Part shown: positions 2,405 to 21,112 of the stretch, one piece after another
Numbering within the stretch: position 1 is the first letter of the stretch
Layout: each line of letters opens with the position of its first letter
Position numbers and translations under genes: made by a program
The notes under the pieces: generated by a model
The model's database searches: none
What the model saw: the letters and a program-made list of their open reading frames with translations, nothing else
Told to the model about the DNA's origin: nothing
Source of the DNA: a virus
Lineage: Duplodnaviria; Caudoviricetes
Length of the DNA stretch: 57,753 bases
IMG/VR virus record: IMGVR_UViG_3300022181_000117
Coordinates: 1 to 57,753 of that record
Direction: 5' to 3' (one strand)

Positions 2405-3662
2405 GCTCCATATCCAAAAATGACAATTGAACAGCTGGCTTTTTTCTATTGTTGCTTGCGTAAGACCTGAGCTTTCGTATGGCTTTTTCTGCCAAAGAAG
2501 ACAACTCTTCCTTAGACAGTTCATACTTATTAGTAGCCGATGAAAGGGTACTAAGGACACATGTGCCCAATGCCCGACCCAGTTGGGTGGGCACAGCATT
2601 GCCGATTTGCTGGTACTGTTGGTTCATGGCTCCCAAAAGTTCCCATTCGTCAGGGAAACCTTGAATGCGTTTATATTCATTAACTGACAGTGGACGATCA
2701 CGTTCGGGGTGACACAGGGCTGTACCCTTGCGGTTTGCTTTTGTTGTAAGAGTTGGAGCTGGACTATCCCAAGCCAAACGACGCATGAATCCAGTCTTCC
2801 CCCCTCCCGCGTCAAAAGATCCGCCCAAGGCCTCTTTTTGTTTCTCGATGGGTAAATCTCTCCAGTTACCGCCAGGCGGCACATTCCGAAAAATCAGTGC
2901 GATTCGATCGGTATATATGGAGTGGACTCCAGGCGAATCGACTAGGTCAGAAATCGCGTCTTGCAAAGTGACATAGGGTAGGAGAGGTGGCAAACCATGT
3001 GTTGGCCTTGGAAGTCCCATTGCTCCAACATCACGAAATCCAAGCATACAAAACCGAATTCTCTTTTGTGGTGCTCCATAATCCGCCGAATTGAGAATCC
3101 CGAAGGTAATCGAATATTGAAGGGCGTGTATTTCATCCAACAAATATCTGAAGGCGCTACCCGAGAGTTCATTGTCTGCAAGGGCTCTGTTGTTATCTTC
3201 ACCCGTTACATCCTCTCGGCTATACCGTGCTAAGTTCCAATGTTTGCCTGGTCTTAAGTGAATCGGGCGGTGCTGCAAAGCAGCCGTCAAAAGATTGCCT
3301 ACGTTCTCAAAAATGAACGCTTGTGGTTTTAGTGCATTTACAAAGCGAAAGTACTCAAAAATCAAATTGCCGCGCGGATCACTTAGACCAGATCGCTTGC
3401 CCGCACTAGAAAAACTTTGGCACGGAGGACCGCCGACCAAGATTATGGAGGAATCAATACCAAGAGTTTCGGCAATATCGACTGGGTTTAAATCCGATAC
3501 AGACCCCTCAAATACCCGCACTTGCGGGCGATTGCGTCGAATCGTCGCGCAACACCATTTGTCTATCTCACAGCACGCAACTGTTTCTATGCCGCTTTGC
3601 TCTAGTCCTAGATCAAGCCCCATGGCCCCGGAAAATAGTGATATGGTTTTGTATCTTTTCAT
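2382..3662 (-). CDS. DNA (cytosine-5)-methyltransferase
   Basis: Motif I FSGAMG, IV GGPPCQSFS, VI FENV, VIII QKRIR, X QIGNAVP. Confidence 0.96.
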   Translation of the reverse strand: MKRYKTISLFSGAMGLDLGLEQSGIETVACCEIDKWCCATIRRNRPQVRVFEGSVSDLNPVDIAETLGIDSSIILVGGPPCQSFSSAGKRSGLSDPRGNLIFEYFRFVNALKPQAFIFENVGNLLTAALQHRPIHLRPGKHWNLARYSREDVTGEDNNRALADNELSGSAFRYLLDEIHALQYSITFGILNSADYGAPQKRIRFCMLGFRDVGAMGLPRPTHGLPPLLPYVTLQDAISDLVDSPGVHSIYTDRIALIFRNVPPGGNWRDLPIEKQKEALGGSFDAGGGKTGFMRRLAWDSPAPTLTTKANRKGTALCHPERDRPLSVNEYKRIQGFPDEWELLGAMNQQYQQIGNAVPTQLGRALGTCVLSTLSSATNKYELSKEELSSLAEKAIRKLRSYASNNRKKPAVQLSFLDMEHDKIRSV

Positions 3663-7426: not shown

Positions 7427-10400
7427 TTACATGCCCTGTTCCTCGTAGCTTTCGATGACGGCCAGTCGGCTCTTGTTCGGCCGGAGCATCTTTCTCACCT
7501 GGTCCCGCATGGAGTCCCGCGAGATGAGGGGAACCACCCGGCGCATGTCGTGTTCCCGAATGAACGTGTTGTAGCGCTCCACCTTGTCGAGGATGTCCCG
7601 CAACTTGCCGGGGTCCGCTTCGGCATCGGCGAGATAGGCCCGATATTCCTCGTAGATGTTCTTGCGTCGATCCGAAAAATTGGCCTGTTCGCGCCTGGCT
7701 TCCCGTTCGCGGGCCTCGACGGTTGCGCGTCTGCCGGACCGGAATCCCAGGATGCGCCCTGCCGTCTCTCCCCCTGTCGGGATGTAGGGCTTGCCCCGCT
7801 CATCCCATACGCGGTTTCCGCTGCTGGTCGTGGCGCCGTTCAATTCGCGCATGGCTCGCAGGAAGTTGCCAAGAAATCCCGGCGCGGCACGCTCCGCCGC
7901 GCGTCCGGGCTGGCCGGTCGCAAGGTAGTGGCCGGCCCGTCCGATGTCTTCCACGATGCCGCCGAACGCCCCGGTGAGATCGAGCAGCGTTCGCGGGGTC
8001 TGCATGCCAACGGCAAGGGAGCCGGAGAGATCGACCCCGGCCGCGCCGAGAAGACCATGCCGGGCGACCCGTTCGGCTTCTCCGCCGAGGTTTTCCCTGA
8101 TCACGTCGTAGACCATCTTTTCCGGGTCCCGGTCATCGCCCACGGCCCGCATCATGGCCTTGCCGATTTCCATCAGGATGGGAGTCGCCGCCATGGCCGA
8201 AGACCCCGCAAGGACGGCGGGGGAGAGGAGGGCGAAAGTGAACGCCTTGACGTTTCGCTTGTTCGCGCCCAGGTCGTAGAGGGTCTGCAGGTAGTTGTGG
8301 GCGAACTTGGCGTAGGTGTATCCCATCTGGCCGATTTTCGCCGCCGGGTTGCTCCCCATCGACCACATGGGCATCGTGGCCTTGCCGTAGATGCCGTGGG
8401 CCTTGTTGCTGGCGTTGACGGCGGCGTCCGCGGCTTCCTCGTGGGACAGGCCGCGCGCCCGCGCAAGGCGATACCCGGCCAGCATGGTGGAGCCCCGGAT
8501 CCATTCCTCGGATTTGCGGAACATCCACATGGCCTTGTCCATGACCGCCTGCCAGGATTTTCCGTAAGCCCCCGCAAGGTTCGCCATCGCCTCGCGGGTG
8601 AACTGCTCCAGGTTGGCCGAGCCTCTCATGCGCTCCATGAAAGCCTGCTCATCCTTGTTGCCGAGCGTCTTTTTCCCGGTCATGAAGCCCGCGAAATCAC
8701 GGGAAGCGCTCATGAGTTCCTTTCCCACCTTGAACAAGCCGCCCTTGCCCCCCATGGCGTATTCGTGAAGCGCGGGCGGAACGGTGGTGGCCATCGCCGT
8801 GATGTTGGCGAGCACCGTGCGCGGGGAAAAACCGAGGTACTTGAAGCTGACAAGGGATTTGCCGAACGCGATGGCCCGGTCGGTCGCGTCGGGGTTTCTC
8901 AGCATTTCGTGAATGTAGTCCGCGTAAGTCTGGTAGCGCTCCGGTTCCTTCGCGGGGTCGATGCCGCCTTCGTGAACGGATTTGGTTTGCCGGTCGGATT
9001 CGAGTTCCTTTGCCGTGAGCGCAATCGCGTTCGTCACGTCTCCTGCGTCATCCCGCAACACCCACTCGTCGCCTTCCCGTTCGTAGGTCTGGTACTCGCC
9101 CATCAAAGCCTTGAACATCTGCGACGCGGCCTTGCTTTTGGCGATGCCGCCCGCGGTCTGCTGCGCGTACATGAGGTTGCGGGTCAAGGGGTCCGTGATG
9201 TAGCCTCGAACCACGTCCCCTTCGGAGCGCTGGATCTTGTGGGCCCTGAATCCGCGTTCCTTCAGGATGTCGGCTGCGCTCTCCAGGACTTCCTTTCGAA
9301 GCCTTGCCGCGATTTCGGGATCGAGGTCCGCGCCCCTGACGGCCCGGTCCACGGCCGCCTGGATGTCGGGGATGGTGATGTCCTGGTAGATGGATTCGGG
9401 CAGGCGCTCGATGCGCTGCGGATCACTGATGTTCTTGTGACCCTCGCGCTTTAACCGTTCGATGAACTTGTAGGCCGCCCGCCGGGAAGGCTGGTGGAAG
9501 CGGTAGCGCTCTCCGCCCCTAGCCGAGGTGATGAACCAGTCCCCGGCCTCTCGGATCCGGGGGGAGTAGGAGCCCTTAAGCCAGCCCATCTGGTTGTAGA
9601 GGTCTTTCAACGTGACCTGATGGGGTTTGCCTTCCGCGTCCCTTTGCGTTCCAATCACCGGGACCGGCTTGCGAGCCTTCTCATAATGATTGAGCAGTTT
9701 TCGGATATCGGCACTCTGAAGCTCAAGCGCCTCATCGAGCATGTCCCGGATCTTGTCGACGGCCTCGATCACGTCTTTCGGAGCGCCTTCTCGCACGAGC
9801 TTGTCGCGGTAGGGCTCGATGATCTTGCCGTATGCGTCTTTCTGGTAGACGGGGTTGCCGTTTTCATCTTTGTGAACCCTCCACTTCCAGTTCATCCGGT
9901 CCATATAGTCGATGTGATGCCCGATGTCCTGGTATGCCTTCGGAGCGTCAGATTGATCGTAGAGATCGTACCCCTTTTGCCGGGTCCACCATCCCTTGCC
10001 CTTGAACATGACGACCTTCATCGCTTCGGCCACTTCGGGAGCCTTGAGCACCAGGTTCATGATCTGGTGGCGGTCTTCCTCCCGGCCTTGCGCGGCATCG
10101 AAAATGGCCTTCCCGACCTTGTTCTTCCAGTGTTCCGCGGTGATGAAGAGACGCCCGAGAAAGCCGGTTTCGGTGCGTTCCTCAACCCGGCCCGATGCGG
10201 CTTTTATGGTGGAGAGGAATTCATCGCGCCCTGCGTCTTTGAGGGAGAACGCGGGCTTGAATTGTCCTTCCGGGGTCATCAGTGAAAACAGCGGTTGTCC
10301 CTTCATGGCGGACTCGCGCATGGCGTCGGTCACGGGAAGAAAATGGACCATGGATACATCTCGTGTTCCGTGCGCTATCGGGATATTTGTCTCTCCGACC

Positions 10401-13400
10401 CTGGCCCCCCACTTCTTGACGTACTTGTTGACTTCGGAGGGAAGGATTCTGTCGTAGAAGCCTTTCATGCCCTCGCCGCCGACCTTGAGGTCGAGGCCAC
10501 GGAAAGACACTTCTTTCCCTGGTTGTTCGGCTTGTGCAATGATCTTCTCCGAAAGGTCCTTCCCGATGAAATCGGATAGTGCGTCAGGACTCATCGTTTC
10601 TTCGGAATGAATGATCACCCCATCCTTTTCGATGGAGATATTGTAGGTCCCGGGCAGGAAGCTATCTTGGGCGGCATATACGGTATCCACTTGTTTGCTC
10701 AGATCGTATCGCTCCGCCTGAACCGTGCCGGGGTCCCAGGAGATCCCGCCATACCCGTTCTCTGCGGCGTAACGGATCATGCGTTTCATGGCCAGCATGG
10801 CCCAGGAACCGGTTGACGTGACGAACGGGCCGCCAGGAATCATGTGGGCCGTTGCAGTTTGAGCGGGCGATTCCGCCAGTCGCCTGCGAGCTTCTTTTAT
10901 GGCCGCTTCCTCGGTCTTGACTTCAGGGTCGAAGATATTGGTTACAAAATCCCCGTCTTTTGTTGTGACTTCCCAATATCCATTGGAGTTCTCCGCATGG
11001 AGTTCCTGCTTGGCGAAATCTTTACGGAATCCTTTCTTCCTTCCCTCCTGCGCCCAATCGCTCTGCACTTCTGCAATGTGAAGCAGCTTCTCTCCGTCGG
11101 GACCGGTACGGTCATCGAAGCGCACATGGGCGAAAACGTTGGGCTCGGTCCAATGGGGGGATCGATAATTGCGTGTCGTATCGAGAGCAGCGCGGAAAAT
11201 CCCGTTGGGCGAATCCACGGCTTTTTCGTCTTTGGATACCGGTAACGTCAGCAGCAGTTCCCGGTAATTCTCCCCGCCCGGCTGGGTATACATGTCGTAG
11301 CGTGTTTCCTGGACTATCCCCATCTTCCGTGCAACGAGACGTAGGTCGTCCGGGAGTATTTGTGCTTTCCGGATTCGTTCCAGCAGTTCTTCCCTGGAAG
11401 CTTCTTCGATGCTGTCGAGATCGGCGAATTCCTCGTAGCCGAGAGAATCCACAATAGCCGCAGCTTCGCGGAGTTCCTCATCGCTCATGGCATGCCATCT
11501 GAGCCCCCTATACTTCGTCGCTTCCTCGATTTGCACTTCATTTTGCTTCAGGAAGTCCAGGATCTCCTGCTTGCCGATCTTGCCTTTTCGCTCGGCAAGC
11601 CATTCCAATAGACCGGACCATTGCAGTTCCTCCGCCTTGAATTCGCCCTTATTGGCCCAGGAATCGATCATGCTCCGGAAAGTCTCGGATTGCCCGGACC
11701 CGGGGAGTTTGTTGAGCAGGGTCCGTTGAAGTTGAGAATAGAACATGGGGGCCGCTTGCGAATAACGCGGGGTGAATGCGCCTTGAGAGCCCGGCCTGAA
11801 AGCTCCGCCCGATTCCACAGCCCGCCCGGCCCGCGCCACGAGAGCCTTGATGTCGGCCTCGGTGAGCCGGATGGTGAAGCCGATGTTCCTCAACGCTTCC
11901 CGGATCGCCGCATAGAGGCGTTTGAGAAATCCGGGCTTCTCGCCCTTCTCCGCCATGCGGGCGATCTTCTCGCGGGCGGCGCTCATTCTGCCGTCCCGGG
12001 TGCTGAGATCGAAACCGTAAAGGTCGGCAACTTCCTGGAGTCCTTTCTTGCCGTACAGCATGAAGACTTCCCTCAGGAAGGGTTGGAGCCGGTCTCCAAG
12101 GAGCGCCTCGACGCCGTAGTGCCCGACGAGCTCATGGAGCAGGACTTCCTGCAACCGCTCGGGCGTCGGAATGTTCTCGCCGACAAGGTAGACCGCGCCG
12201 GTTTCTCGGTCGTAGGCCGCCTCGGGAATGCCGCCTCTGTCCTTGGCCTCTTCGGCTACGTGCGCCGGAAGATCGTCCACCGAGTTGACCACTTCGACCC
12301 GGGGACCGCCGGGGAGCTTTTCGACAATGGGCTTGAGAATTCGCTGAAATTGTTGTATATTATTTAGTGTGGGGCCACGGAGCGTTTCAGGACGTTGAGA
12401 GAGGGGCTCTTCGGAGCGCGAAAACGCATCGGAGGGAGCACTGCTTGCCGTGGCCTTTCCTGTTTTTTTGTACATGGTCTTCGGGACAAGTTCCCCGGTT
12501 GCAGTTCTGACTTCTTCCAGGTAATAAACAAATCCGTTGACACGCTTGATGTATTGTATTACCCGGTTTCCATGCTTGGTTATCGATTTGCCAAGACGGA
12601 TCTTATTCGGTGGTTGGATGATTTCAGGTATGTGCAGGATATCTTCCCTGGTTATTGCAGCCTGCCCGCGCAAAGCCTCTCTTGCTTCATTTCCGTGTTG
12701 CTTCAGGATGTGCCGAATCGAATAATTGTCAACAATGTGCGCGTAGCCGGAAACGTCAATCTTGGCATCCTTTTCGATCCTGTCCGCTTCTTCCTCGTCA
12801 GCCTTCCGGATTTCGACTTTCCTGACCTTGCCCGCCGGGTTTTCCATGGCGTAATCGAAGAGATCGGAGAGCTTCCACTTGAGTTCGCTATCCCGCGAAA
12901 TGGAAAATGCGGCCCTGCGGCCGCCCGGCCGATACGGTGCGGTTTCATCCACGATGGGCCGGTTCCTGGTCAGTCTGGCAAGGACCGTCTCGCCCTCCTC
13001 ACCCGTTGGGACGAAATATCGCGTAGTGTATTGAATTCTCTCCCGGAAAATTCCGGCATCGTCGAGTTCCTTGTCATGAGCGTAATTCGGTCCGGTGAGC
13101 TCGATTCTCTTTTCGCCGGACACCCATCTTTCGGCCAGGCTCCAGTTGTTTGCCAGGCGCAAGGTGAAACCCTTGCCGAGAAGATCGATGGCCTTTGCCG
13201 GGGTATACTGCACATCGCTCCGGGATGCCCCGAGATTTGCAAGAACCTCGTTCAAGTCCTGGTGATTGATGAGTCTTCCGAGAAACCGCTTGCCGTCGCT
13301 CGTCTGCAGGCGGACGATTCGAGTGCTTCCCGTAAGGCGGTCCCAAATGGGAAGGACGGCCCCGGTTATCATGTGGGTTCTTTCGGTCACGGTTTTCGGT

Positions 13401-16400
13401 GCTTCCGCGAGATGTTTCTCCCATGCCTCTCGCGCCGCATCGCCTTCGAGCTTCGTCCACTTCTTGGTGTCGGTCAGTTCATCTTCGTGGACCTGCTGCG
13501 CCTTGGTGGCCGGGGATTTCAACGTGGCAACGTTGTAGACTTCTCCCGTCTTGTTGTTCGTTGTGGAACGGATAGGGCCGGCCGCCCAAATCTTCCCGCT
13601 CCTGACATTCCGGTAAATTCCGGTCTTGGCAAACCGCTGGCCTTCGGCGTAAGTCATCCGCGGAGCCGGATTGGTGATATCGACTTCCACGTATTTCGTC
13701 TCGGCCCCGGTCTTTTCATCCTTGTGGACCGTCTCTTCCTTGACGAGTACGATCTTGTCGGCGTGGATGTTCTCAAGGCCCTGATCGAGCGTCCCGAATT
13801 CGATCTCTCTTTCAATGACGGTATCGAGTTGATCCGAGAAGGCGTCGAAGACGGCATTCTGAGCTTCATACTTGAGAGAAAGAAGGCGGTTCAGAAACTG
13901 AGTCATCTGTGGATAACTGAAAGTCTGATTGCCGGTTTCGTTGATAAGTTTCAGACCTGTCTGCCGCTCGAATTCCTCGATGCCGACGCCGCCGATATGT
14001 CCATCCTGAAAGAGTTTGTCGATCGTGCGGAGAAGAGCTTCCTGGGCATATCTGCTTTCAAGATTATCCCTGGCCGTGAAGAATCCCTGGCTTCCGGCCT
14101 GGCGCTGTCCCTTGGTGAGCGCTCCAAGCTGATCAAGCCTCCGGGCGATGGAGGATATGAAGCGTGCCTGTCCTTTTAGATCGGTGGTCACCAGTAGATA
14201 ATGCGGGGCCTGTCGTTGATTGGTCCGGTGAGTGCGCCCAAAACCCTGAACGGCTACATCGGCCCGCCATCCCGGTTGCACCAGGAAATGAATGCGCTTC
14301 TCCTGGTTCTTCGCGGTCAGGTCGGCATGGTAGCTGAGTCCGGTTCCGCCCGCCGACGAGAAGATGAGGACGCGCTTCTTCCCGGCCTGGAACGCTGAGG
14401 CGTCCGCTTCAGTCTTGGCCTTGCTCCTGGACTCCTTGACTCTGTGGCCGTCCTCGCCGACCACGACCCGCTGAGTTCTCCCGGTTATCTCGGCCACGTT
14501 TTTCGCGCCGAATTCGTTCAGGATCATTTCCATTGGGCCGTCCGGAACCTTGATGCTTCCGATTTCGTCAAGGAGCCGTTCCCTCATCTCAACGGCTTCA
14601 CGGTTCTGAACGGGGTTGCCGTTGGAATCGAGCACCATCTGCGCTCGAATATTGCCGTTGTCGTCCATGTATTCTTCGTATTGAAAAACCGGGAAACTGT
14701 GCGCGATGTATTGAGCCAGCTGGTCGCGCGGCGTAAGATCGAGATCCTCCAGGGTATCTTCCTCGCCGAGCTTGGCAATCGCGCGGTTCAGGCTCGCTTC
14801 GTTGGTATTCACGAGTTGAATCACGCAGGAATTCCCCGTATCCAGTTCTTGATGCATGCGTTTCAATACGGACGGCATCTGGAGGGAGGTAATGATCTGG
14901 TTGAAAAACCTCTGATGCGAGCCCCAAAAGGCGGCCATGGCCGCGCCTTTGGCATCTCCGTTCATGAATGCCCCGGTCACTTCCAGTGCCTTGTTGACGT
15001 TGTTCAAGACCACCTGCCACCCTTCGGCCAGCTTGTCGTAAATCCCGCGTTGTTCGTCGGAAAGAGAGTGCTCCAGGCGGTCATAAGTCACGTCATGATA
15101 GGATAGGGACCGGGCAAGGTATTTGCCCATGGCCTTGAGATCGCGGGCAACCAACTCCATGGCCGCGATCCCTCCGGAGGAAATTTGGGAGACAAACGCC
15201 TTCACATTGGGGAATGCCGTTCCGGCCCCCCACAAACCCAGTCGCTTTGCATAGGCCAGATTCAGGACTTCCGTGGCGCCGGTTGCCGAGACATAAACCA
15301 CGCGAGCCTTGGGAAGCCTGTCCTGCAATTCGATTCCGGCAAGGGCCGTTTTCGACGGGTCTTTCGTTCCGCGCTCCCCCTTGACCTGAATGGCGTTGCC
15401 CATCTGGTGCGATTCATCGAAAACGATGACGCCGTCAAAATCCTTCCCGAGCCAATTGACGATCTGGTCGATTCTCTTTTGCGGAGGCATTCCTTCTTCT
15501 TTGGATTTCGTAACGTTTTTCAGTGTGGCGTAAGTGGTAAAAAGAATGCCCTCCTCTGCCTTCACGGGAGTTCCGGGCTTTATTTTCCCGAATTCGAAAA
15601 CCTTCTCCGGATCGTCTCCTATTCCCTCCACGTCTCTGCGTGCGTCCTTGAACAGACTGGAGTTCGCGCTGAGCCATACGCCTTGTTTGCGGCCCTTGTT
15701 CCAGTTGTCCAGGATGATGCCTGCGATTTCACGGCCCTTCCCGACGCCGGTCCCATCACCGATGAAATATCCTTGGCGCTCCCCGCTCTCAAGCATCGCG
15801 TTATGTGCTTGGCCGGCACGCACCACGTTCTCCAATTGAGCGTCGGAGAGTTTGCCTTCCTTGATGATCTTTTCGGGAATGGACGGACGATAGGCGACCG
15901 GCGGCGGCTTGACCGTCGCCATGGCGGCGCTTTCAACGAGGGTCCCGGGATGGGGTTTGGCTTTGGATATTGAAACGGTAGACTTGTACTGATCGTAAAC
16001 GGAATCGGAAAGCGCGGTTTTGGCGGCTTCCTCCTCGGCCTGCCGAACTTCTAGAGGTCCGGTCTCCCGGAGGCCACCATCTGGCTCCAAACCTGGTCGA
16101 GAAGGCTCCACGCGAACTGGAGTGGGGGCTTGTCCTTGTCTTCCAGAAGTCCCGGAAGGGCGCTCCCTCCTTCCTTGTCCTTTCCCTCCAAGATCTTCAT
16201 GGTATCCTTCGGATCGCCCAGGCTGAATGCCTCCACGGTCGCCTCTAACCTGTTGTCCAGGTCGAGTTCCCCCGTGCGGATGGCCCACAACATCAGCTGG
16301 TGCGCGTGGAGAAACGAGTAATCCACCTTCTCGCCCGCCTTCTCCAAGGCTTTCAATGCGGCCTGGTTGAGGGGCACTCTGTTGAGCCAGTTCACCAGTT

Positions 16401-19400
16401 TCTGTTTGTTGGCGGGCATCTCTGACTCCTTTGAGAATGGGCGGCGCTTCCTTCACATCTTCAACGCTTCCCTTGACGATATCATAGCCTTTGGGCTCTA
16501 TTTTGTCAATTATTATCAAACGGTTGTCAAAGCTTGTTCCGTACTTTTGATATCCCTTCCCGGACAAACCAATATCCGCGCGGACCGCATATTTACCGGT
16601 GATCTTATTCCACCACTTACGAAAAGCGGGCGCATCCATGGCCATTCCGCGACCGACTATCGCAACGAGCCTCCCGCCGGATTGCAGACGGTTCAACGCC
16701 TGTTCGATATGACGTTCGGCGTTGCTGGTTTTGCGTTGCCCGGTGATCCTTCCCGCCGTCGATGAAAAGGGCGGATTCATGATGATGATGGTGGGCCTGA
16801 CATCATCGGGCAGGATGTTGTCGAGCTGCTCCGCGTTCTCCGTGAAGACGCGATCGAATCCCATCTGTTTAAGAATCCCGGCCCGGCGCTCGGAGAACTC
16901 ATTCACATAGGTCCTGGCACCCGATGCTTTGGCAAATACCGCAAGACCGCCAATACCCGCGCTCGGCTCAAGAACCGTGTCCTTCCCGGTGATGTTCGCG
17001 GCCCAGGCCGCCAGGTAGGCGAGAGGGGGCGGAGTCGAAAACTGCTGAAACTCATCCATCTCGGCGGTGCGCTTGGACTGCGTGGGAAGCAGATTGATGA
17101 GGCGCTGCAACGCCTTGATCTGGTCCTTTGCGGCATCCATGTCGGCCGGAAGAGCTTCCCCTGTGAAATGGTCGAGGATGTACTGATTGACGCCCATCTC
17201 CATGGCATCGTAGGCATCCTTGGGGGTGTATTTGCCTTCCGCCTGGCTCCCGCCGAACGCTTCATTGCCCTTGGCGAAAAGATCCTTGGCGGAAAACATC
17301 TTTCCGGCGGCAATCTTGTCCTTCACCCAGGCGGCGAGTTGCCGGCTTGCGGATGATGCGGGAGCTGTTTCCGTTTTTGTTGTCGGAACAATCTCGGCCT
17401 TCGCGCCGGGTTGAGGGATGACCGGATAATTCTTTAAGGCATCGAGATATTCCTCGACGTGGTCCCCCAAACTGATTTCAGAGGGTTCTTTCCGTACCTT
17501 TTCCCCGGCCTGTTTCAGCTGTTTTCCGTATTTCTCTGCAAGATCCGGATATCGATTCAGCACTTCAGGTGGAATGATCTTGTTTTCTTTGAGTGCCGTC
17601 TCGACATGCTGACGATGAGCGACGGAAGCCGTTTGTTCAAAATGCTTTTCCGTTCCAACCAGAAATCCATGAGTTTCAGGAAGAAAGGGCTTCTTCAATT
17701 TCGTTTTGGCTTGCTCGGTGAACTCTTCCCGCGTCATCTCATGGGGCTGTTTTTCCGGACGGCTCTGTTTTTCAATGTCCCTGAGCACCCCCGGCAGTTC
17801 CTCGAAAGAATAAACCGCGTCGTGCTTGTCGATGGTGAACCGGAGTTTCGTGACATCGGTCTTCGGATCGAGCAGCACTTCATTGGCCGATTCGCCGCGT
17901 CCGACGATGGATTCCCGTGGCGCCACGATGCCCACCGGAACGTGCTCGTAATCCCCGTACATGGGAATGACCGGTTTGTCCCTGGTCGTGATCTCGGTCG
18001 CGCTGATTCCCGGCCGTCCTTCGAAAGATCGGCCTTCGCGCAATCGCTTGTTCTCCAACAGATATTGGAGTTCTTCGACATCGGTGGCACGGACTGCGGA
18101 ACCGAGAGGAATGTTTCCCGCCGCAACTTCACGTTGGATCACGTCTTTGACGTGCGCCTTCTCTTCGGCGATTTCCCTGGTGGTTGTAGGGGCCGCCTCG
18201 ATCTTATCGACGCTGTGCGCGGCTTCTTCAAGGGCAGCCTCAAGGTCGCTGCTCAACCTCGGGCCTTTGGGCTTTTCTGGACGTTCCTCCTGGATCGGTT
18301 TCTGTTCTTGAGCGCTTTCTTCCTGAGAAAGCGCCGCCTCCAATTCCCTTATGGCCTCGGCCGTACTCTCGACTCTGCGCTGTGAAGCGGCCACGTGGTT
18401 TGCGTTCAGCCATAGATTAGTCTCAAGACCATGCCCCATGCTCTTGTCGTAGTCGCTGACGGCGGCCTCTCCGCGAGTTTCGAGATCGGCCTTTCGAGCG
18501 AGATCGCGGGCGAGTTCCCTCCTGGCTTGCTCATGTTCCGCCCGGGCCTTTTGAAGCTTCTTTTCGAGGGCGGTCCTTTCCTTTTTCGTCATCTTCCTCG
18601 CCGGTTCGGGCTTTCCCATGGCCGGAGCCTGCGGCGCTACCTCGCCTTCCCGCCGCCCTTCCGGTGCTTGAAATACTCCACCTGCCGGAGCCGCTCGTTC
18701 GCCTGCGCCTCGCTCGGGTACGGGCCCCCCAGCCGCTTCTTGCCGTCCTCGGAGCGCACTTCCCATCCCTGCCTGGTTTTCACCTTCATAAGCCTGTCCT
18801 TCCTTGTAAGAAACGGGTTTCTTCGTTTGCTTCGGGTTTCTCACCCATCGTTTGAATTCCTTCATGCCCATTCCGGTGACGGCGCCCTTGCCCTGCCAGC
18901 CGGGGGCATAGTTCTGCCGGTAAATCTGTTCCGCCTCCGCCTGGCTGTTTGCGCCGAGAATCACCTTGTGTTCATCGAATTTCCCGGTTCCCGGGTCGAT
19001 CTGGTCGACCACGTAGGCCCGCTCGCTCGTGGGGTTCGGGCCGATGAACGCATCGACGTGGTCCTTGTCTTTTCCCTTGGTACCCAGGATGTAGCCGTAA
19101 TGATTTTGAAGCGTGGATTCCCAGCGCTTTCCCTCCTTGTCCGTCCCGGAGCGAATGGAGCCTTGCGGGTTCTCGATGCTGATTCCAAGCCCCTGGAAAT
19201 TCACCCGGCCTTTCTTGTAGTTCCCGGCTTCCTTCTGAGCCTCGGTCGGCTCCGGGCGTTCGTTCAGCGGAGAAGTCGCCGCCTCGTGGGCCTTCCGGTC
19301 GATGGTTTCGAGCGGAGCCTCGGCACTTTCGGGAGGCAGTGCCGGAGCGGCGGGTTCGACCGCGGGGGGCATCGGGTAGTTTTCCCGCCGGATGCCCTGG

Positions 19401-21112
19401 AGGGCTTCCCCGGCCAGGCGGTCTCTCAGAAGCTCCGCTCCCGCCGGAGACTGCATGCGGTTGAAGTCCTTGAGGAACACGCCGGCCGATTCCGCAGCCG
19501 ACTTGGAGACGGGTTGGAGCGGCTCCCGGCGGATGGCTCCCCCCTGGAGAAGGTCGCTCGTCTCGCTTCCGGGCATGGCGACAGGACCGGCGCTTTCCGT
19601 GTGCGGGGCTCCGGCGAGGATGTTGCTGCTGTCCGGGACTCTTTGAGCCCGTTCCATCTGTTGCTCGTAGAGCTCCTGCACGGCCATGCCGTCCGAGAGT
19701 TGCTGTTGACGGCGGGAGATGGCGCCCTGGTCGATGTTTTCGGGCGGGAAATTACGGCCGTACTGGTCCCAATACTGCTGTTCGGCCTCAATTTCCTCCC
19801 GTGTGGTCGGAACCGGGCGCCGGTCGATGTCCGAATAGAGTTTCTGCAGCTGGGCCAGTTCGGCTTGCTGCTCGTCGGTGCGCTGCCCCTCGGGCACCCC
19901 GGAAAGCTCGTCGATTCGCTTTTGGAGCATCGAGGCGTCGCGCCCGCGCGCGAGCCGCGAATAAGCCCCGCCGATCCCGCCGAACACCCCGCCGCCCACC
20001 GCTCCGGCCATGCCCGCCTCGAACATCCGCGCGGCGTTCTCCCCCGTGAACGCCTCGAACGTGGGGTCCGCGATGGCGAGGTTGGCGATGGAGAGCAACT
20101 CCTGCCCGGCTTCCTGCGCGAATTCCTGCGGGGCCTGGACGGCGGCCTCCTTGATGATGGAGCCGAGAAGGGACGTGTCCGCCTTTTCGAGCGCCTTCCT
20201 GAAGAGGGCCGTCTTTTCCGGCCCCACGATTCTCGATATGGTCCGGTAACTGCCGCCCGCAAGTTCCAGGAAAGACGAAGCGAGGCCCGTGGCCGCCGCC
20301 GTCAGGGGAGCGTCCGCGCCGCGCTCCGTCAGGGCTTCGGCGTAATTGCCCCCCGCCTCCAGGGGAAAGGTTCCGGCCACAACGCCCGTCGCGCCCCCAA
20401 GGGAGCGCATGGCAAGTTTCGATGCCGCCCGTTCCGCGACCTCCCGGGAAATCCCCCTGGTGACCATTTCCCCGGCCATCTTCTCGATGGATTTCTTGAG
20501 CGCCGTTTTGCCCAGCAGCCCCGCCGCCGCGCCCACGACCGTTCCGCCCACCGGCTCCACCGCGCTCCCCGCCGCCGCTCCCAGCAAGGCCATGCCCACG
20601 CTTTCCGCGACGCTCGGGAGCAGCTCGCCGACTTTCCCCGCTCCGTACTTATAGGCGGAAACCGGGCCGGTGATGTCCCGGAAGCTCGGCACCGACGCCG
20701 GATTCAACTCGGCTTCCTCCACGTTTCGGCGGTATCCCTCGATGCCCCAATTCTTCAGGCGGTCGATGCCCATGGCCGAACCGGCAAGCCCCGCCATGCC
20801 GTAAAGGGACGACTGCATCTGATCGATGCCCCGGAGCACCCCCCTCGTCAATTCCCCGCGCTTCTCCATGTTTTCCCGCGCGATTCCGCGCCGCTGCGCC
20901 TGGTAGGCTTCTTCCAGCATCGGATCCGGGGATGCGCCGTAAGCCGCCGGGGATGAAGGTCTTTGAATGGCCCGGGAAACGGGCGCGGCGGTTTCCGTGC
21001 CCTCACCGGGAGCCTCCGGTTCCCGCGGCGAAAAGACGGGACCGGCATCCGGCGGCCGCGCCCCGGTGATCGCATCGTATCCCTTGAGGAAATCGTCATA
21101 CGAAATGCCCAA
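7427..21112 (-). CDS. Giant (4561 aa) polyvalent DarB-like internal virion/ejection protein
   Basis: A/G-rich ejection-type N-terminus; inorganic-pyrophosphatase-like domain (~19300-18840, ISIENP..HYGY..KDHVDAFIG); N6-adenine MTase (~17340-16500, VLEPSAGIG, NPPF); Strawberry-notch SF2 helicase (~15970-12950, GDGTGVGKG, DESH, QGFGRTHR); PBECR3-like nuclease (~12880-12470, RHILKQHG); zincin HELVGH (~12130); EVQSDW domain (~11060). TTG start with GGAGG RBS. Confidence 0.9.
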   Translation of the reverse strand: MGISYDDFLKGYDAITGARPPDAGPVFSPREPEAPGEGTETAAPVSRAIQRPSSPAAYGASPDPMLEEAYQAQRRGIARENMEKRGELTRGVLRGIDQMQSSLYGMAGLAGSAMGIDRLKNWGIEGYRRNVEEAELNPASVPSFRDITGPVSAYKYGAGKVGELLPSVAESVGMALLGAAAGSAVEPVGGTVVGAAAGLLGKTALKKSIEKMAGEMVTRGISREVAERAASKLAMRSLGGATGVVAGTFPLEAGGNYAEALTERGADAPLTAAATGLASSFLELAGGSYRTISRIVGPEKTALFRKALEKADTSLLGSIIKEAAVQAPQEFAQEAGQELLSIANLAIADPTFEAFTGENAARMFEAGMAGAVGGGVFGGIGGAYSRLARGRDASMLQKRIDELSGVPEGQRTDEQQAELAQLQKLYSDIDRRPVPTTREEIEAEQQYWDQYGRNFPPENIDQGAISRRQQQLSDGMAVQELYEQQMERAQRVPDSSNILAGAPHTESAGPVAMPGSETSDLLQGGAIRREPLQPVSKSAAESAGVFLKDFNRMQSPAGAELLRDRLAGEALQGIRRENYPMPPAVEPAAPALPPESAEAPLETIDRKAHEAATSPLNERPEPTEAQKEAGNYKKGRVNFQGLGISIENPQGSIRSGTDKEGKRWESTLQNHYGYILGTKGKDKDHVDAFIGPNPTSERAYVVDQIDPGTGKFDEHKVILGANSQAEAEQIYRQNYAPGWQGKGAVTGMGMKEFKRWVRNPKQTKKPVSYKEGQAYEGENQAGMGSALRGRQEAAGGPVPERGAGERAAPAGGVFQAPEGRREGEVAPQAPAMGKPEPARKMTKKERTALEKKLQKARAEHEQARRELARDLARKADLETRGEAAVSDYDKSMGHGLETNLWLNANHVAASQRRVESTAEAIRELEAALSQEESAQEQKPIQEERPEKPKGPRLSSDLEAALEEAAHSVDKIEAAPTTTREIAEEKAHVKDVIQREVAAGNIPLGSAVRATDVEELQYLLENKRLREGRSFEGRPGISATEITTRDKPVIPMYGDYEHVPVGIVAPRESIVGRGESANEVLLDPKTDVTKLRFTIDKHDAVYSFEELPGVLRDIEKQSRPEKQPHEMTREEFTEQAKTKLKKPFLPETHGFLVGTEKHFEQTASVAHRQHVETALKENKIIPPEVLNRYPDLAEKYGKQLKQAGEKVRKEPSEISLGDHVEEYLDALKNYPVIPQPGAKAEIVPTTKTETAPASSASRQLAAWVKDKIAAGKMFSAKDLFAKGNEAFGGSQAEGKYTPKDAYDAMEMGVNQYILDHFTGEALPADMDAAKDQIKALQRLINLLPTQSKRTAEMDEFQQFSTPPPLAYLAAWAANITGKDTVLEPSAGIGGLAVFAKASGARTYVNEFSERRAGILKQMGFDRVFTENAEQLDNILPDDVRPTIIIMNPPFSSTAGRITGQRKTSNAERHIEQALNRLQSGGRLVAIVGRGMAMDAPAFRKWWNKITGKYAVRADIGLSGKGYQKYGTSFDNRLIIIDKIEPKGYDIVKGSVEDVKEAPPILKGVRDARQQTETGELAQQSAPQPGRIESLGEGGREGGLLVSPRAPADVVGHPHGGTRPGQQVRGDRGGIQPGRSEGYHEDLGGKGQGRRERPSGTSGRQGQAPTPVRVEPSRPGLEPDGGLRETGPLEVRQAEEEAAKTALSDSVYDQYKSTVSISKAKPHPGTLVESAAMATVKPPPVAYRPSIPEKIIKEGKLSDAQLENVVRAGQAHNAMLESGERQGYFIGDGTGVGKGREIAGIILDNWNKGRKQGVWLSANSSLFKDARRDVEGIGDDPEKVFEFGKIKPGTPVKAEEGILFTTYATLKNVTKSKEEGMPPQKRIDQIVNWLGKDFDGVIVFDESHQMGNAIQVKGERGTKDPSKTALAGIELQDRLPKARVVYVSATGATEVLNLAYAKRLGLWGAGTAFPNVKAFVSQISSGGIAAMELVARDLKAMGKYLARSLSYHDVTYDRLEHSLSDEQRGIYDKLAEGWQVVLNNVNKALEVTGAFMNGDAKGAAMAAFWGSHQRFFNQIITSLQMPSVLKRMHQELDTGNSCVIQLVNTNEASLNRAIAKLGEEDTLEDLDLTPRDQLAQYIAHSFPVFQYEEYMDDNGNIRAQMVLDSNGNPVQNREAVEMRERLLDEIGSIKVPDGPMEMILNEFGAKNVAEITGRTQRVVVGEDGHRVKESRSKAKTEADASAFQAGKKRVLIFSSAGGTGLSYHADLTAKNQEKRIHFLVQPGWRADVAVQGFGRTHRTNQRQAPHYLLVTTDLKGQARFISSIARRLDQLGALTKGQRQAGSQGFFTARDNLESRYAQEALLRTIDKLFQDGHIGGVGIEEFERQTGLKLINETGNQTFSYPQMTQFLNRLLSLKYEAQNAVFDAFSDQLDTVIEREIEFGTLDQGLENIHADKIVLVKEETVHKDEKTGAETKYVEVDITNPAPRMTYAEGQRFAKTGIYRNVRSGKIWAAGPIRSTTNNKTGEVYNVATLKSPATKAQQVHEDELTDTKKWTKLEGDAAREAWEKHLAEAPKTVTERTHMITGAVLPIWDRLTGSTRIVRLQTSDGKRFLGRLINHQDLNEVLANLGASRSDVQYTPAKAIDLLGKGFTLRLANNWSLAERWVSGEKRIELTGPNYAHDKELDDAGIFRERIQYTTRYFVPTGEEGETVLARLTRNRPIVDETAPYRPGGRRAAFSISRDSELKWKLSDLFDYAMENPAGKVRKVEIRKADEEEADRIEKDAKIDVSGYAHIVDNYSIRHILKQHGNEAREALRGQAAITREDILHIPEIIQPPNKIRLGKSITKHGNRVIQYIKRVNGFVYYLEEVRTATGELVPKTMYKKTGKATASSAPSDAFSRSEEPLSQRPETLRGPTLNNIQQFQRILKPIVEKLPGGPRVEVVNSVDDLPAHVAEEAKDRGGIPEAAYDRETGAVYLVGENIPTPERLQEVLLHELVGHYGVEALLGDRLQPFLREVFMLYGKKGLQEVADLYGFDLSTRDGRMSAAREKIARMAEKGEKPGFLKRLYAAIREALRNIGFTIRLTEADIKALVARAGRAVESGGAFRPGSQGAFTPRYSQAAPMFYSQLQRTLLNKLPGSGQSETFRSMIDSWANKGEFKAEELQWSGLLEWLAERKGKIGKQEILDFLKQNEVQIEEATKYRGLRWHAMSDEELREAAAIVDSLGYEEFADLDSIEEASREELLERIRKAQILPDDLRLVARKMGIVQETRYDMYTQPGGENYRELLLTLPVSKDEKAVDSPNGIFRAALDTTRNYRSPHWTEPNVFAHVRFDDRTGPDGEKLLHIAEVQSDWAQEGRKKGFRKDFAKQELHAENSNGYWEVTTKDGDFVTNIFDPEVKTEEAAIKEARRRLAESPAQTATAHMIPGGPFVTSTGSWAMLAMKRMIRYAAENGYGGISWDPGTVQAERYDLSKQVDTVYAAQDSFLPGTYNISIEKDGVIIHSEETMSPDALSDFIGKDLSEKIIAQAEQPGKEVSFRGLDLKVGGEGMKGFYDRILPSEVNKYVKKWGARVGETNIPIAHGTRDVSMVHFLPVTDAMRESAMKGQPLFSLMTPEGQFKPAFSLKDAGRDEFLSTIKAASGRVEERTETGFLGRLFITAEHWKNKVGKAIFDAAQGREEDRHQIMNLVLKAPEVAEAMKVVMFKGKGWWTRQKGYDLYDQSDAPKAYQDIGHHIDYMDRMNWKWRVHKDENGNPVYQKDAYGKIIEPYRDKLVREGAPKDVIEAVDKIRDMLDEALELQSADIRKLLNHYEKARKPVPVIGTQRDAEGKPHQVTLKDLYNQMGWLKGSYSPRIREAGDWFITSARGGERYRFHQPSRRAAYKFIERLKREGHKNISDPQRIERLPESIYQDITIPDIQAAVDRAVRGADLDPEIAARLRKEVLESAADILKERGFRAHKIQRSEGDVVRGYITDPLTRNLMYAQQTAGGIAKSKAASQMFKALMGEYQTYEREGDEWVLRDDAGDVTNAIALTAKELESDRQTKSVHEGGIDPAKEPERYQTYADYIHEMLRNPDATDRAIAFGKSLVSFKYLGFSPRTVLANITAMATTVPPALHEYAMGGKGGLFKVGKELMSASRDFAGFMTGKKTLGNKDEQAFMERMRGSANLEQFTREAMANLAGAYGKSWQAVMDKAMWMFRKSEEWIRGSTMLAGYRLARARGLSHEEAADAAVNASNKAHGIYGKATMPMWSMGSNPAAKIGQMGYTYAKFAHNYLQTLYDLGANKRNVKAFTFALLSPAVLAGSSAMAATPILMEIGKAMMRAVGDDRDPEKMVYDVIRENLGGEAERVARHGLLGAAGVDLSGSLAVGMQTPRTLLDLTGAFGGIVEDIGRAGHYLATGQPGRAAERAAPGFLGNFLRAMRELNGATTSSGNRVWDERGKPYIPTGGETAGRILGFRSGRRATVEAREREARREQANFSDRRKNIYEEYRAYLADAEADPGKLRDILDKVERYNTFIREHDMRRVVPLISRDSMRDQVRKMLRPNKSRLAVIESYEEQGM
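12333..12361 (+). promoter_or_regulatory. Antisense sigma70 promoter inside the giant gene
   Basis: TTGAGA (12333-12338), 17 bp, TATATT (12356-12361) in an AT-rich patch within GC-rich coding DNA. Confidence 0.65.
12368..12469 (+). ncRNA. Candidate structured antisense small RNA (~100 nt)
   Basis: Closing stem GGCCACGG (12373-80) / CCGTGGCC (12448-55); inner stem GCGTTT (12382-87) / AAACGC (12422-27); GCTC-TTCG-GAGC tetraloop hairpin (12406-17); T7 tract (12463-69). Confidence 0.55.
16051..16419 (-). CDS. Nested (overprinted, +1 frame) 122-aa helical protein inside the giant gene
   Basis: AAAGGAG 7 nt before the ATG and its own promoter upstream. Globular amino-acid composition, whereas the host frame here is G/R/P low-complexity. 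Confidence 0.75.
   Translation of the reverse strand: MPANKQKLVNWLNRVPLNQAALKALEKAGEKVDYSFLHAHQLMLWAIRTGELDLDNRLEATVEAFSLGDPKDTMKILEGKDKEGGSALPGLLEDKDKPPLQFAWSLLDQVWSQMVASGRPDL
16481..16509 (-). promoter_or_regulatory. Internal near-consensus sigma70 promoter for the nested gene
   Basis: TTGACA (16509-16504), 17 bp, TATGAT (16486-16481), ~60 bp upstream of ATG 16419. Confidence 0.75.
18637..18789 (-). CDS. Nested (overprinted, +1 frame) 50-aa basic protein inside the giant gene
   Basis: Hand-translated MKVKTRQGWEVRSEDGKKRLGGPYPSEAQANERLRQVEYFKHRKGGGKAR*; RBS AAGGAAGG upstream; below the ORF-track cutoff. Confidence 0.65.
   Translation of the reverse strand: MKVKTRQGWEVRSEDGKKRLGGPYPSEAQANERLRQVEYFKHRKGGGKAR

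Follow-up and report, generated by a model that had tools for sequence, protein, structure and literature searches.

In type I toxin–antitoxin (TA) systems such as txpA/RatA and bsrG/SR4 of Bacillus subtilis and par of pAD1, a convergent antisense RNA is encoded over the 3′ end of the toxin gene. In type III systems (ToxIN), the antitoxin is an RNA of tandem repeats that is encoded upstream of the toxin gene on the same strand and that binds the endoribonuclease. Colicins D and E5 are nuclease toxins for which the gene of an immunity protein lies directly downstream. The locus described here lies in the provirus record IMGVR_UViG_3300022181_000117, the 57,753 bases of which are referred to below as the window. 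It belongs to a gene for a giant polyvalent protein (positions 7427–21112, − strand, an open reading frame of 4561 amino acids) that contains PBECR3, an RNase domain of the BECR fold. An initial annotation of this DNA had placed a small structured RNA gene on the opposite strand, directly behind the domain (12333–12469), and had proposed it as an RNA antitoxin or decoy. Comparison with related loci suggests that the site may be one instance of a conserved gene for a structured, cis-antisense small RNA, which together with the PBECR3 domain would make up a two-part cassette. This reading as a whole is given a probability of about 0.35; its separate parts are graded below.

The likeness to type I systems is one of gene layout only: a putative structured small RNA gene with its own predicted promoter lies opposite to and behind the gene of a harmful product, and a terminator-like helix and U-tract reach into the coding sequence. 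Unlike the small hydrophobic membrane peptides of type I systems, the partner is an RNase domain of the BECR fold, some 120 amino acids long and often within a giant protein, and the PBECR3-linked RNA differs further in that it usually lies inside coding sequence, carries a near-invariant hairpin and is present once per domain copy. As in type III systems, the RNA would neutralise an endoribonuclease by binding it, and RNA and nuclease appear to be co-inherited. In contrast to type III systems, no tandem repeats were found in 12200–12900, the PBECR3 RNA lies downstream and on the opposite strand, and the nuclease is not ToxN-like. With the colicins and the MuF toxins the locus shares the position directly after the toxin domain, a MuF fusion (locus L106) included, and the same nuclease fold family. 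The difference is in what occupies that position: no protein gene was found there in L106 or in two loci with solo PBECR3 genes (L147 and L151), which have an RNA-like element on the other strand instead.

The protein side of this locus has been described. In the parts of Iyer et al. (2017, PMC5512222) that deal with them, PBECR domains are reported as fusions to MuF and portal domains, as parts of large virion-linked proteins and as solo proteins, and polyvalent proteins are predicted to be virion-packaged weapons that are injected into the host. By the description given in those parts, the gene at 7427–21112 is a typical polyvalent-protein gene, and the same PBECR contexts were found in the present analysis. 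For the MuF toxins of temperate phages, passages of Jamet et al. (2017, PMC5576092) state that a toxin-making cell should also make the immunity protein, and that known domains are lacking from many of the C-terminal extensions of proteobacterial MuF proteins. These passages, the same parts of Iyer et al. 2017 and the available text of a 2026 preprint on BECR do not address how a cell that makes the nuclease domains, or a lysogen, escapes them. The word "antisense" has no occurrence in the text of Iyer et al., which covers protein domains only, and neither "antisense" nor "RNA antitoxin" occurs in the available text of the preprint. Full-text literature searches, which covered listings and passages of the articles reached, found no report of an antisense RNA linked to PBECR3. 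The PBECR3-linked RNA element is thus apparently previously undescribed.

In the window, the parts of the antisense unit are all encoded on the + strand. A −35 hexamer TTGAGA (12333–12338) and, after a spacer of 17 nucleotides (nt), a −10 hexamer TATATT (12356–12361) scored 10/12 in the promoter scan; on the coding strand the former falls within ATT CTC AAG (I L K) and the latter is the rare codon pair AAT ATA (N I). The inferred 5′ end of the RNA lies near 12368. In the minimum free energy (MFE) fold, the 5′ arm of a closing helix, P1 (GGGGCCACGG, 12371–12380), is paired with a 3′ arm (CCGUGGCCUU, 12448–12457) that overlaps the final codons of the PBECR3 Pfam match. The core of P1 is an 8-bp stem of GGCCACGG (12373–12380) and CCGTGGCC (12448–12455), which G·U pairs lengthen to 10 pairs (12371–12380/12448–12457). 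P1 encloses P2, a small hairpin bearing the family signature (CGUU-UCAG-GACG, 12383–12394, then UU), and P3, a variable arm (12397–12447) that in the MFE fold includes a hairpin at 12406–12417 with C(UUCG)G at 12409–12414. Directly after P1 comes a terminator-like, U-rich tail, UUUCCUGUUUUUUU (12458–12469). It ends in a T7 run (12463–12469), for which the coding strand has TAC AAA AAA ACA (Y K K T). The site does not fit the definition of an intrinsic terminator (a G+C-rich hairpin with a loop of 3–8, then a U run), and the terminator scan omits it because P1 closes a branched interior of 67 nt.

The features that the initial annotation had named on the + strand, namely TTGAGA-17-TATATT, the 8-bp stem, C(UUCG)G and the T7 run, are all present in the sequence, and the site does occupy the linker between PBECR3, which was matched by Pfam PF18812 at 12452–12805 on the − strand (residues 2770–2887 of the giant protein), and the zincin domain, whose HELVGH motif is encoded at 12119–12136 on the − strand of the same open reading frame. 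The site runs opposite to the gene and spans codons ~2882–2927 (peptide YKKTGKATASSAPSDAFSRSEEPLSQRPETLRGPTLNNIQQFQRILKP). The inner stem listed in that annotation is likewise present, but the C(UUCG)G tetraloop proved to belong to the variable arm and lacks conservation, which is instead a property of the hairpin at 12383–12394, with the loop UCAG.

The recurrence of this unit was examined in viral loci retrieved with a three-domain PBECR3 alignment. The 58 loci retrieved were supplemented with the window and one phage record, and removal of near-duplicates and of one too-short locus left 34 non-redundant loci, with PBECR3 domains 30–46% identical to that of the window and with a G+C content of 0.28–0.69. 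Pfam PF18812 was matched by all ten of the related loci tested. A strict P2 pattern, CG-Y-Y-U(C/U)G-G-R-CGU, was present on the antisense strand 20–110 nt past the domain end in 26 of the 34 loci; background matches of the pattern numbered 11 over 181 kb, and 10 over the 316 kb of a zincin control set, one of which was the window itself. The four pairs of P2 were formed in 96.7% of cells, and none of 500 shuffles reached the observed values. The third pair (31–38) was U-A in 16 sequences, C-G in 12 and U·G in 2. Seven columns of the P2 region, six in the hairpin and the U that follows it, were near-invariant in loci of 28–67% G+C. P2 was read in all three frames (8, 15 and 3 loci), giving peptides of the T-S-E-T, N-A-R and R-P-E types. 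In L106, L111 and L126 it follows a stop codon: in these loci PBECR3 is the last domain of a MuF-type gene, and the 125 nt up to the next gene are taken up by the element. Its presence in three frames and in non-coding DNA indicates conservation at the nucleotide level. The loops found across the loci (UUCG, CUCG, CUUG, UUUG, UUAG and UUCA) fit Y-U-N-R, presumably the U-turn loop motif of antisense RNAs.

P1 extends from within a few bases 5′ of P2 into the final PBECR3 codons (TMYKK, TMWKK or MRKYPAT). Its sequence is wholly different between lineages, yet its two arms match each other in every case. In a subgroup of 14 sequences P1 was 98.4% paired, with compensatory changes at four of nine pairs, and folding of five distinct non-coding copies with RNAalifold gave 28 consensus pairs, P3 included, of which six were changed on both sides. 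P3 varies between loci in both length and sequence. Covariance models were made for subgroups (R1, MRKYP; R2, MuF); P1 was scored by MFE parsing and by duplex energies. In the alignment-free comparison, the P1 arms of the same locus formed a duplex of −23.4 kcal mol−1, versus −15.1 kcal mol−1 with the arms of other loci, and none of 10,000 permutations was as good. The locus's own 3′ region was the best partner in 11 of the 18 lineages with distinct arms. The mean fold z score was −1.74, compared with −0.18 in controls (p = 1.3e-8). A blastn search with the MuF-type element against phage records and Escherichia coli genomes gave no match. Rfam 15 gave none at E ≤ 1 for 12 related loci, except for a sub-threshold, sense-strand match to antisense_SR1 in L106 (32.1 bits; gathering score 45).

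Promoter-like sites recur together with this structure. Antisense sites that scored at least 9/12 and started 80–135 nt past the domain end were found in 19 of the 34 loci, where 1.18 were expected from the background of each locus; the sense-strand control gave 1, with 1.16 expected. Anchored on P2 (31 loci, with L096, L142 and L146 omitted, although L142 has a P2 variant by eye), the best score was at least 9/12 in 22 loci, compared with 6 of 213 control windows (Mann–Whitney p = 7e-16). Resampling of the encoded peptides with synonymous codons predicted sites in 3.99 loci, and they were seen in 16 of 30; without the non-coding L111, the prediction was 2.99 and the observation 15 of 29. The excess over resampling indicates that the hexamers depend on codon choices that are not demanded by the peptides. 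The −10 hexamer ends 21 nt before P2 in the window, the range across the family being 17–36 nt. A conserved promoter and a covarying structure after homologous domains were what the initial annotation had led one to expect, and indeed the promoter, P2 and a covarying P1 all recur there on the antisense strand.

Linkage to the domain was seen beyond single fusions. The second PBECR3 domains of two polyvalent proteins (L093:136–601 and L123:1783–2205) each have their own copy of the element behind them, and the domain that comes after the element differs, being zincin in the window and InPase in L089. Five records outside the main set (L147–L151) served as a hold-out. Both of the solo PBECR3 genes in this hold-out, one on plasmid AZO_p4 of Azospirillum lipoferum 4B (L147) and one in Rhizobium phage RHph_N28_2 (L151), are followed, beyond the stop codon, by non-coding DNA with an antisense P2 and a closing helix. 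These two were also the only hold-out matches of the P2 profile (E = 0.004 and 0.002, respectively). The closing helix of L147 has 10 pairs and a fold z score of −2.40. In this locus (216080–216800) the solo PBECR3 gene, of 165 amino acids, lies between a gene for a cyclic-nucleotide-binding protein and a gene for a TetR regulator; no phage genes were found in the 2.7 kb fetched around it, and it looks like a free-standing two-part module. The earlier suggestion of a self-contained module that travels with the domain is thus supported by the different fusion partners, the second copies within one gene and the solo genes. As far as comparison of sequences can tell, a real, selected nucleic-acid element is very probably tied to PBECR3.

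The proposed model is that a sigma-70-type promoter at 12333–12361 would give rise to an RNA of about 100 nt (12368–12469), predicted to fold as a three-way junction of P1, P2 and P3 with the U-rich tail lying within the final codons of the domain. The RNA would be an antidote or immunity factor that binds PBECR3, with P2 as recognition element or pseudo-substrate, and until its packaging and injection the nuclease would do no harm to the lysogen or to the cell that makes it. An RNA from the opposite strand is necessarily a perfect complement of the mRNA, and antisense control may be added to this action. The chance that the element controls PBECR3 by any route is put at even, and action by direct binding is advanced tentatively. 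The fuller proposal is more doubtful: a new class of toxin and RNA antidote, in which P2 as a pseudo-substrate would inhibit a BECR-fold RNase, nuclease and antidote would shuffle together among polyvalent, MuF, portal and solo proteins, and the lysogen would be immune to the injected nuclease of related phages.

Among the possible modes of action, direct neutralisation is favored because P2 is near-invariant across G+C contents and reading frames, a constraint that simple cis-antisense action would not impose; because there is one element per domain copy and not per gene; because the element occupies the usual place of the immunity gene of nuclease toxins; and because a solo PBECR3 with its element is found on a plasmid outside a phage context, in the manner of a toxin–antitoxin pair.

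Several observations weigh against the reading as an antisense RNA cassette. All loci come from one PBECR3 branch gathered with two peptide patterns, the lineages are related, so that counts overstate independent events, and a pattern together with visual inspection served to choose the P2 anchors of the 31 loci. A promoter-like site of at least 9/12 is missing in 12 to 15 of the 34 loci; about half of the loci, the whole MRKYP class included, have no U-tract; and the fold z score is identical on the two strands (−1.74 each), leaving the strand undecided by thermodynamics. In the hold-out, the L151 closing helix of 7 pairs has a fold z score of +1.04, no better than shuffles, and the strict P2 was not found in any of the three Helicobacter phage PBECR3 loci (L148, L149 and L150). 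The window copy adds its own difficulties. Its + strand fold (12366–12470, −39.8 kcal mol−1, z = −0.93) was equalled by 29 of 200 shuffles, and in a 140-nt frame its z score was +0.34. A P2 profile made without the window had its top match in the whole window at 12375–12402 on the + strand, with an E value of only 0.14, and the covariance models R1 and R2 gave no match to the window copy and found little outside their own subgroups. Two RNA-library runs from a mixed culture yielded one unstranded, low-depth contig each (167 and 151 nt) at 12575–12741; these lie outside the site and speak neither for nor against its transcription.

Two side observations concern these same data. The three Helicobacter loci (jhp1044-type genes) have in common a TTTGTGGTAGAAT-like site of the extended −10 type, antisense and +129 to +168 past the PBECR3 end; the DNA there is AT-rich, so that this common site could be due to chance. 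The RNA-library contigs at 12575–12741 lie inside the PBECR3 coding sequence, nothing else was recovered within 10400–14400, and carry-over of DNA is possible.

A real antisense RNA might instead act by base pairing only, as in type I systems, with the Y-U-N-R loop of P2 making the first contact and the late mRNA being cut as a duplex or blocked in translation, so that no PBECR3 protein would be made in lysogens. This account is unlikely, if the strongest of the alternatives. The convergent layout and the element's own promoter agree with it, as do the U-tract that falls within the coding end of the nuclease in 13 of 31 loci and the fit of the P2 loops to Y-U-N-R, and an RNA so placed is of necessity fully complementary to the mRNA. 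It does not fit the seven near-invariant columns of the P2 region, since a cis-antisense RNA needs no set sequence. Moreover, one copy per gene would be enough, yet both genes with two PBECR3 domains have two copies, and the toxin, as an RNase domain, is unlike the small membrane peptides of type I systems.

The strand on which the element acts was assessed from several features. In 23 of 31 loci the antisense strand had the lower raw fold energy, although that strand is rich in G+U. Within P1, G·U combinations outnumbered A·C combinations by 16 to 3; one U·G pair of P1 was invariant in the 14-sequence subgroup, and a U·G pair occurred in P2 in 18 of 31 sequences. These pairs of P1 and P2 would be A·C mismatches in the mRNA and so favor the antisense strand. 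A U-tract followed the helix in 13 of 31 loci, compared with 47 of 393 control windows, and in the non-coding copies U6CU5 comes immediately after a helix of 12 consensus pairs. Promoters, U-tracts, the excess of G·U and the invariant or frequent U·G pairs thus point to the antisense strand, and transcription of the element from that strand is considered probable.

The opposing possibility, that the selected structure acts in the sense mRNA, as a processing or pausing site or as the recognition site of the nuclease itself, with the antisense promoters secondary, is distinctly unlikely. The equal z scores of the two strands are compatible with it, Watson–Crick covariation being blind to strand, and immediately before the zincin module the sense strand was slightly more structured than controls in 34 viral loci (L009–L054; mean z −0.77 versus −0.27, p = 0.026). 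The enrichment of promoters on the antisense strand only, and above the level predicted from the peptides, does not agree with a sense function; nor do the G·U excess, the invariant U·G pair or U-tracts that follow the helix in the antisense direction.

The site in the window lies between two modules, and the zincin side, analyzed in 80 loci of which 44 were non-redundant, serves as a negative control. Only the window and L009 had a promoter-like site at this junction; the other 42 loci had none, where 2.7 were expected by chance. The antisense fold at the zincin junction was no better than in controls (−0.31 versus −0.27, p = 0.40). With neither promoters nor antisense folds in excess at these junctions, nothing appears to travel with the zincin module.

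The sole close relative of the linker in three collections was L003, on the same contig as L006 and L009, whose zincin module is 81% identical at the protein level. L003 holds a promoter-like site at the same codons (TTGACA-17-TATGTT) despite having no PBECR3. In L003 (site at 3023–3185), the place of PBECR3 upstream is taken by LPD1 and an unassigned segment of 158 amino acids, which had no match in Pfam and did not resemble PBECR3 by profile comparison (probability 0.7%). The longest inverted repeat of this 6.6-kb locus (20 nt, 85% complementary) flanks the linker, and the antisense fold has a z score of −2.66; the P2 motif was not found. The L003 linker may be the remnant of a domain swap, or another RNA. 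A further side observation comes from one low-depth wastewater DNA contig, which matches the window from 12368 rightward, over the RNA body and PBECR3, and diverges leftward. Its breakpoint coincides with the predicted 5′ end of the RNA, and TATATT is found again in the divergent part, ending 5 nt short of the junction.

These boundaries invite a third explanation, in which the unit is a DNA-level inverted repeat at the edge of a cassette, serving recombination that shuffles PBECR3 between polyvalent proteins and giving no RNA product. The unit does lie at a module boundary with varying downstream partners, L003 carries another upstream domain, starting from the linker, and the metagenomic contig diverges exactly at 12368. 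The explanation is nevertheless improbable, as it leaves the conserved promoter, the U-tracts, the three-way junction and the G·U excess unexplained, and the unit is also found after solo genes outside polyvalent proteins.

Judged alone, the window site is not beyond chance. The gene at 7427–21112 contains 4 promoter-like sites, with 3.5 expected. The site is the only one scoring 10/12 on the + strand of the gene (0.15 expected; P = 0.14 by shuffling), and the T7 run, about 100 nt downstream of it, is the only run of at least six T on that strand; a promoter followed by a T-run appeared in 1.5% of whole-gene samples obtained by synonymous-codon resampling. Of the 67 inverted repeats in the gene, the 25 longest do not include that of 8 bp. 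Third-position G+C (GC3) is 0.1 at the −10 region, compared with 0.70 for the gene, and the − strand fold at the site has a z score of −1.97. A search of the window stretch against Rfam release 15 gave no match at the site at E ≤ 10. The site is free of differences in DNA runs X2 and X3, both of which cover it.

Seen as a member of the family, the site is raised above chance by recurrence behind homologous PBECR3 domains, which the comparison of loci confirmed. Its P2, CGUUUCAGGACGU (CGUU-UCAG-GACGU), lies at +72 past the domain end, within the 20–110 nt of the family; the loop is one base longer than the standard, as in L144, and a related CAG-containing loop of standard length occurs in L092. 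The duplex of P1 with its own 3′ region (−26.6 kcal mol−1) was the best of 31, the value with the 30 other loci being −17.2 ± 2.6 kcal mol−1, and a sigma-70-like promoter lies within the family range of 17–36 nt upstream of P2.

That the unit is a chance by-product of coding, with N-I and I-L-K codons behind the hexamers, K-K codons behind the T run and the stem as one of many, is consequently very improbable: nothing in the window alone is significant given the size of the scan, and the linkers of the gene generally use rare codons ending in A or T, but the architecture recurs in most of the 34 loci and in hold-outs, in three frames and in non-coding DNA, and its helix covaries. Pausing at rare codons at the domain boundary was considered as well and rejected; rare-codon windows do cluster in linkers, but recurrence in non-coding DNA would be unexplained. 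The windows of rarest codons in the gene are mostly low-complexity linkers (e.g. codons 1596, 1670, 1244 and 806). A programmed frameshift cassette read from the sense strand, in which C AAA AAA A and a stem 7 nt further on would truncate the protein after PBECR3, is scarcely credible, for although the geometry of A7, spacer and stem is right, the −1 and +1 frames stop after about 25 and 31 codons and the run is the only one of at least six A on the coding strand of the gene (3.15 expected from its own codon usage), only 9 of the 34 loci, none of them from the MRKYP class, have such a run near the domain end, and the element also follows stop codons.

The gene that carries the site is otherwise modular. 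Pfam matches in 7427–21112 identify an InPase domain, a methyltransferase-like stretch, AAA_34/Helicase_C_4 and PBECR3, after which comes the HELVGH zincin module. The window PBECR3 matched PF18812 with 81.9 bits (cut-off 30, E = 4.2e-23), and ten columns are invariant among five PBECR3 sequences, its own copy included. The G+C content of the PBECR3 part is 0.45–0.50, below the average of the gene. The top promoter-like site of the giant gene is a different one: TTGACA-17-TATGAT (11/12), at 16481–16509 on the − (coding) strand, near the end of the methyltransferase-like part.

If the cassette with PBECR3 is real, a domain-linked RNA antidote would explain how the producing cell or lysogen is spared from PBECR3, and BECR nucleases, for which immunity proteins are known, would gain an RNA partner as well. 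The cassette would further mean that a functional RNA gene can ride inside a protein linker, in any frame, and be shuffled with the domain. RNA genes embedded in linkers are invisible to gene finders and to surveys of intergenic RNA motifs. The idea is open to experiment, as a solo PBECR3 with its element is available in systems that are cultivable and harmless, namely Azospirillum lipoferum 4B and a Rhizobium etli phage.

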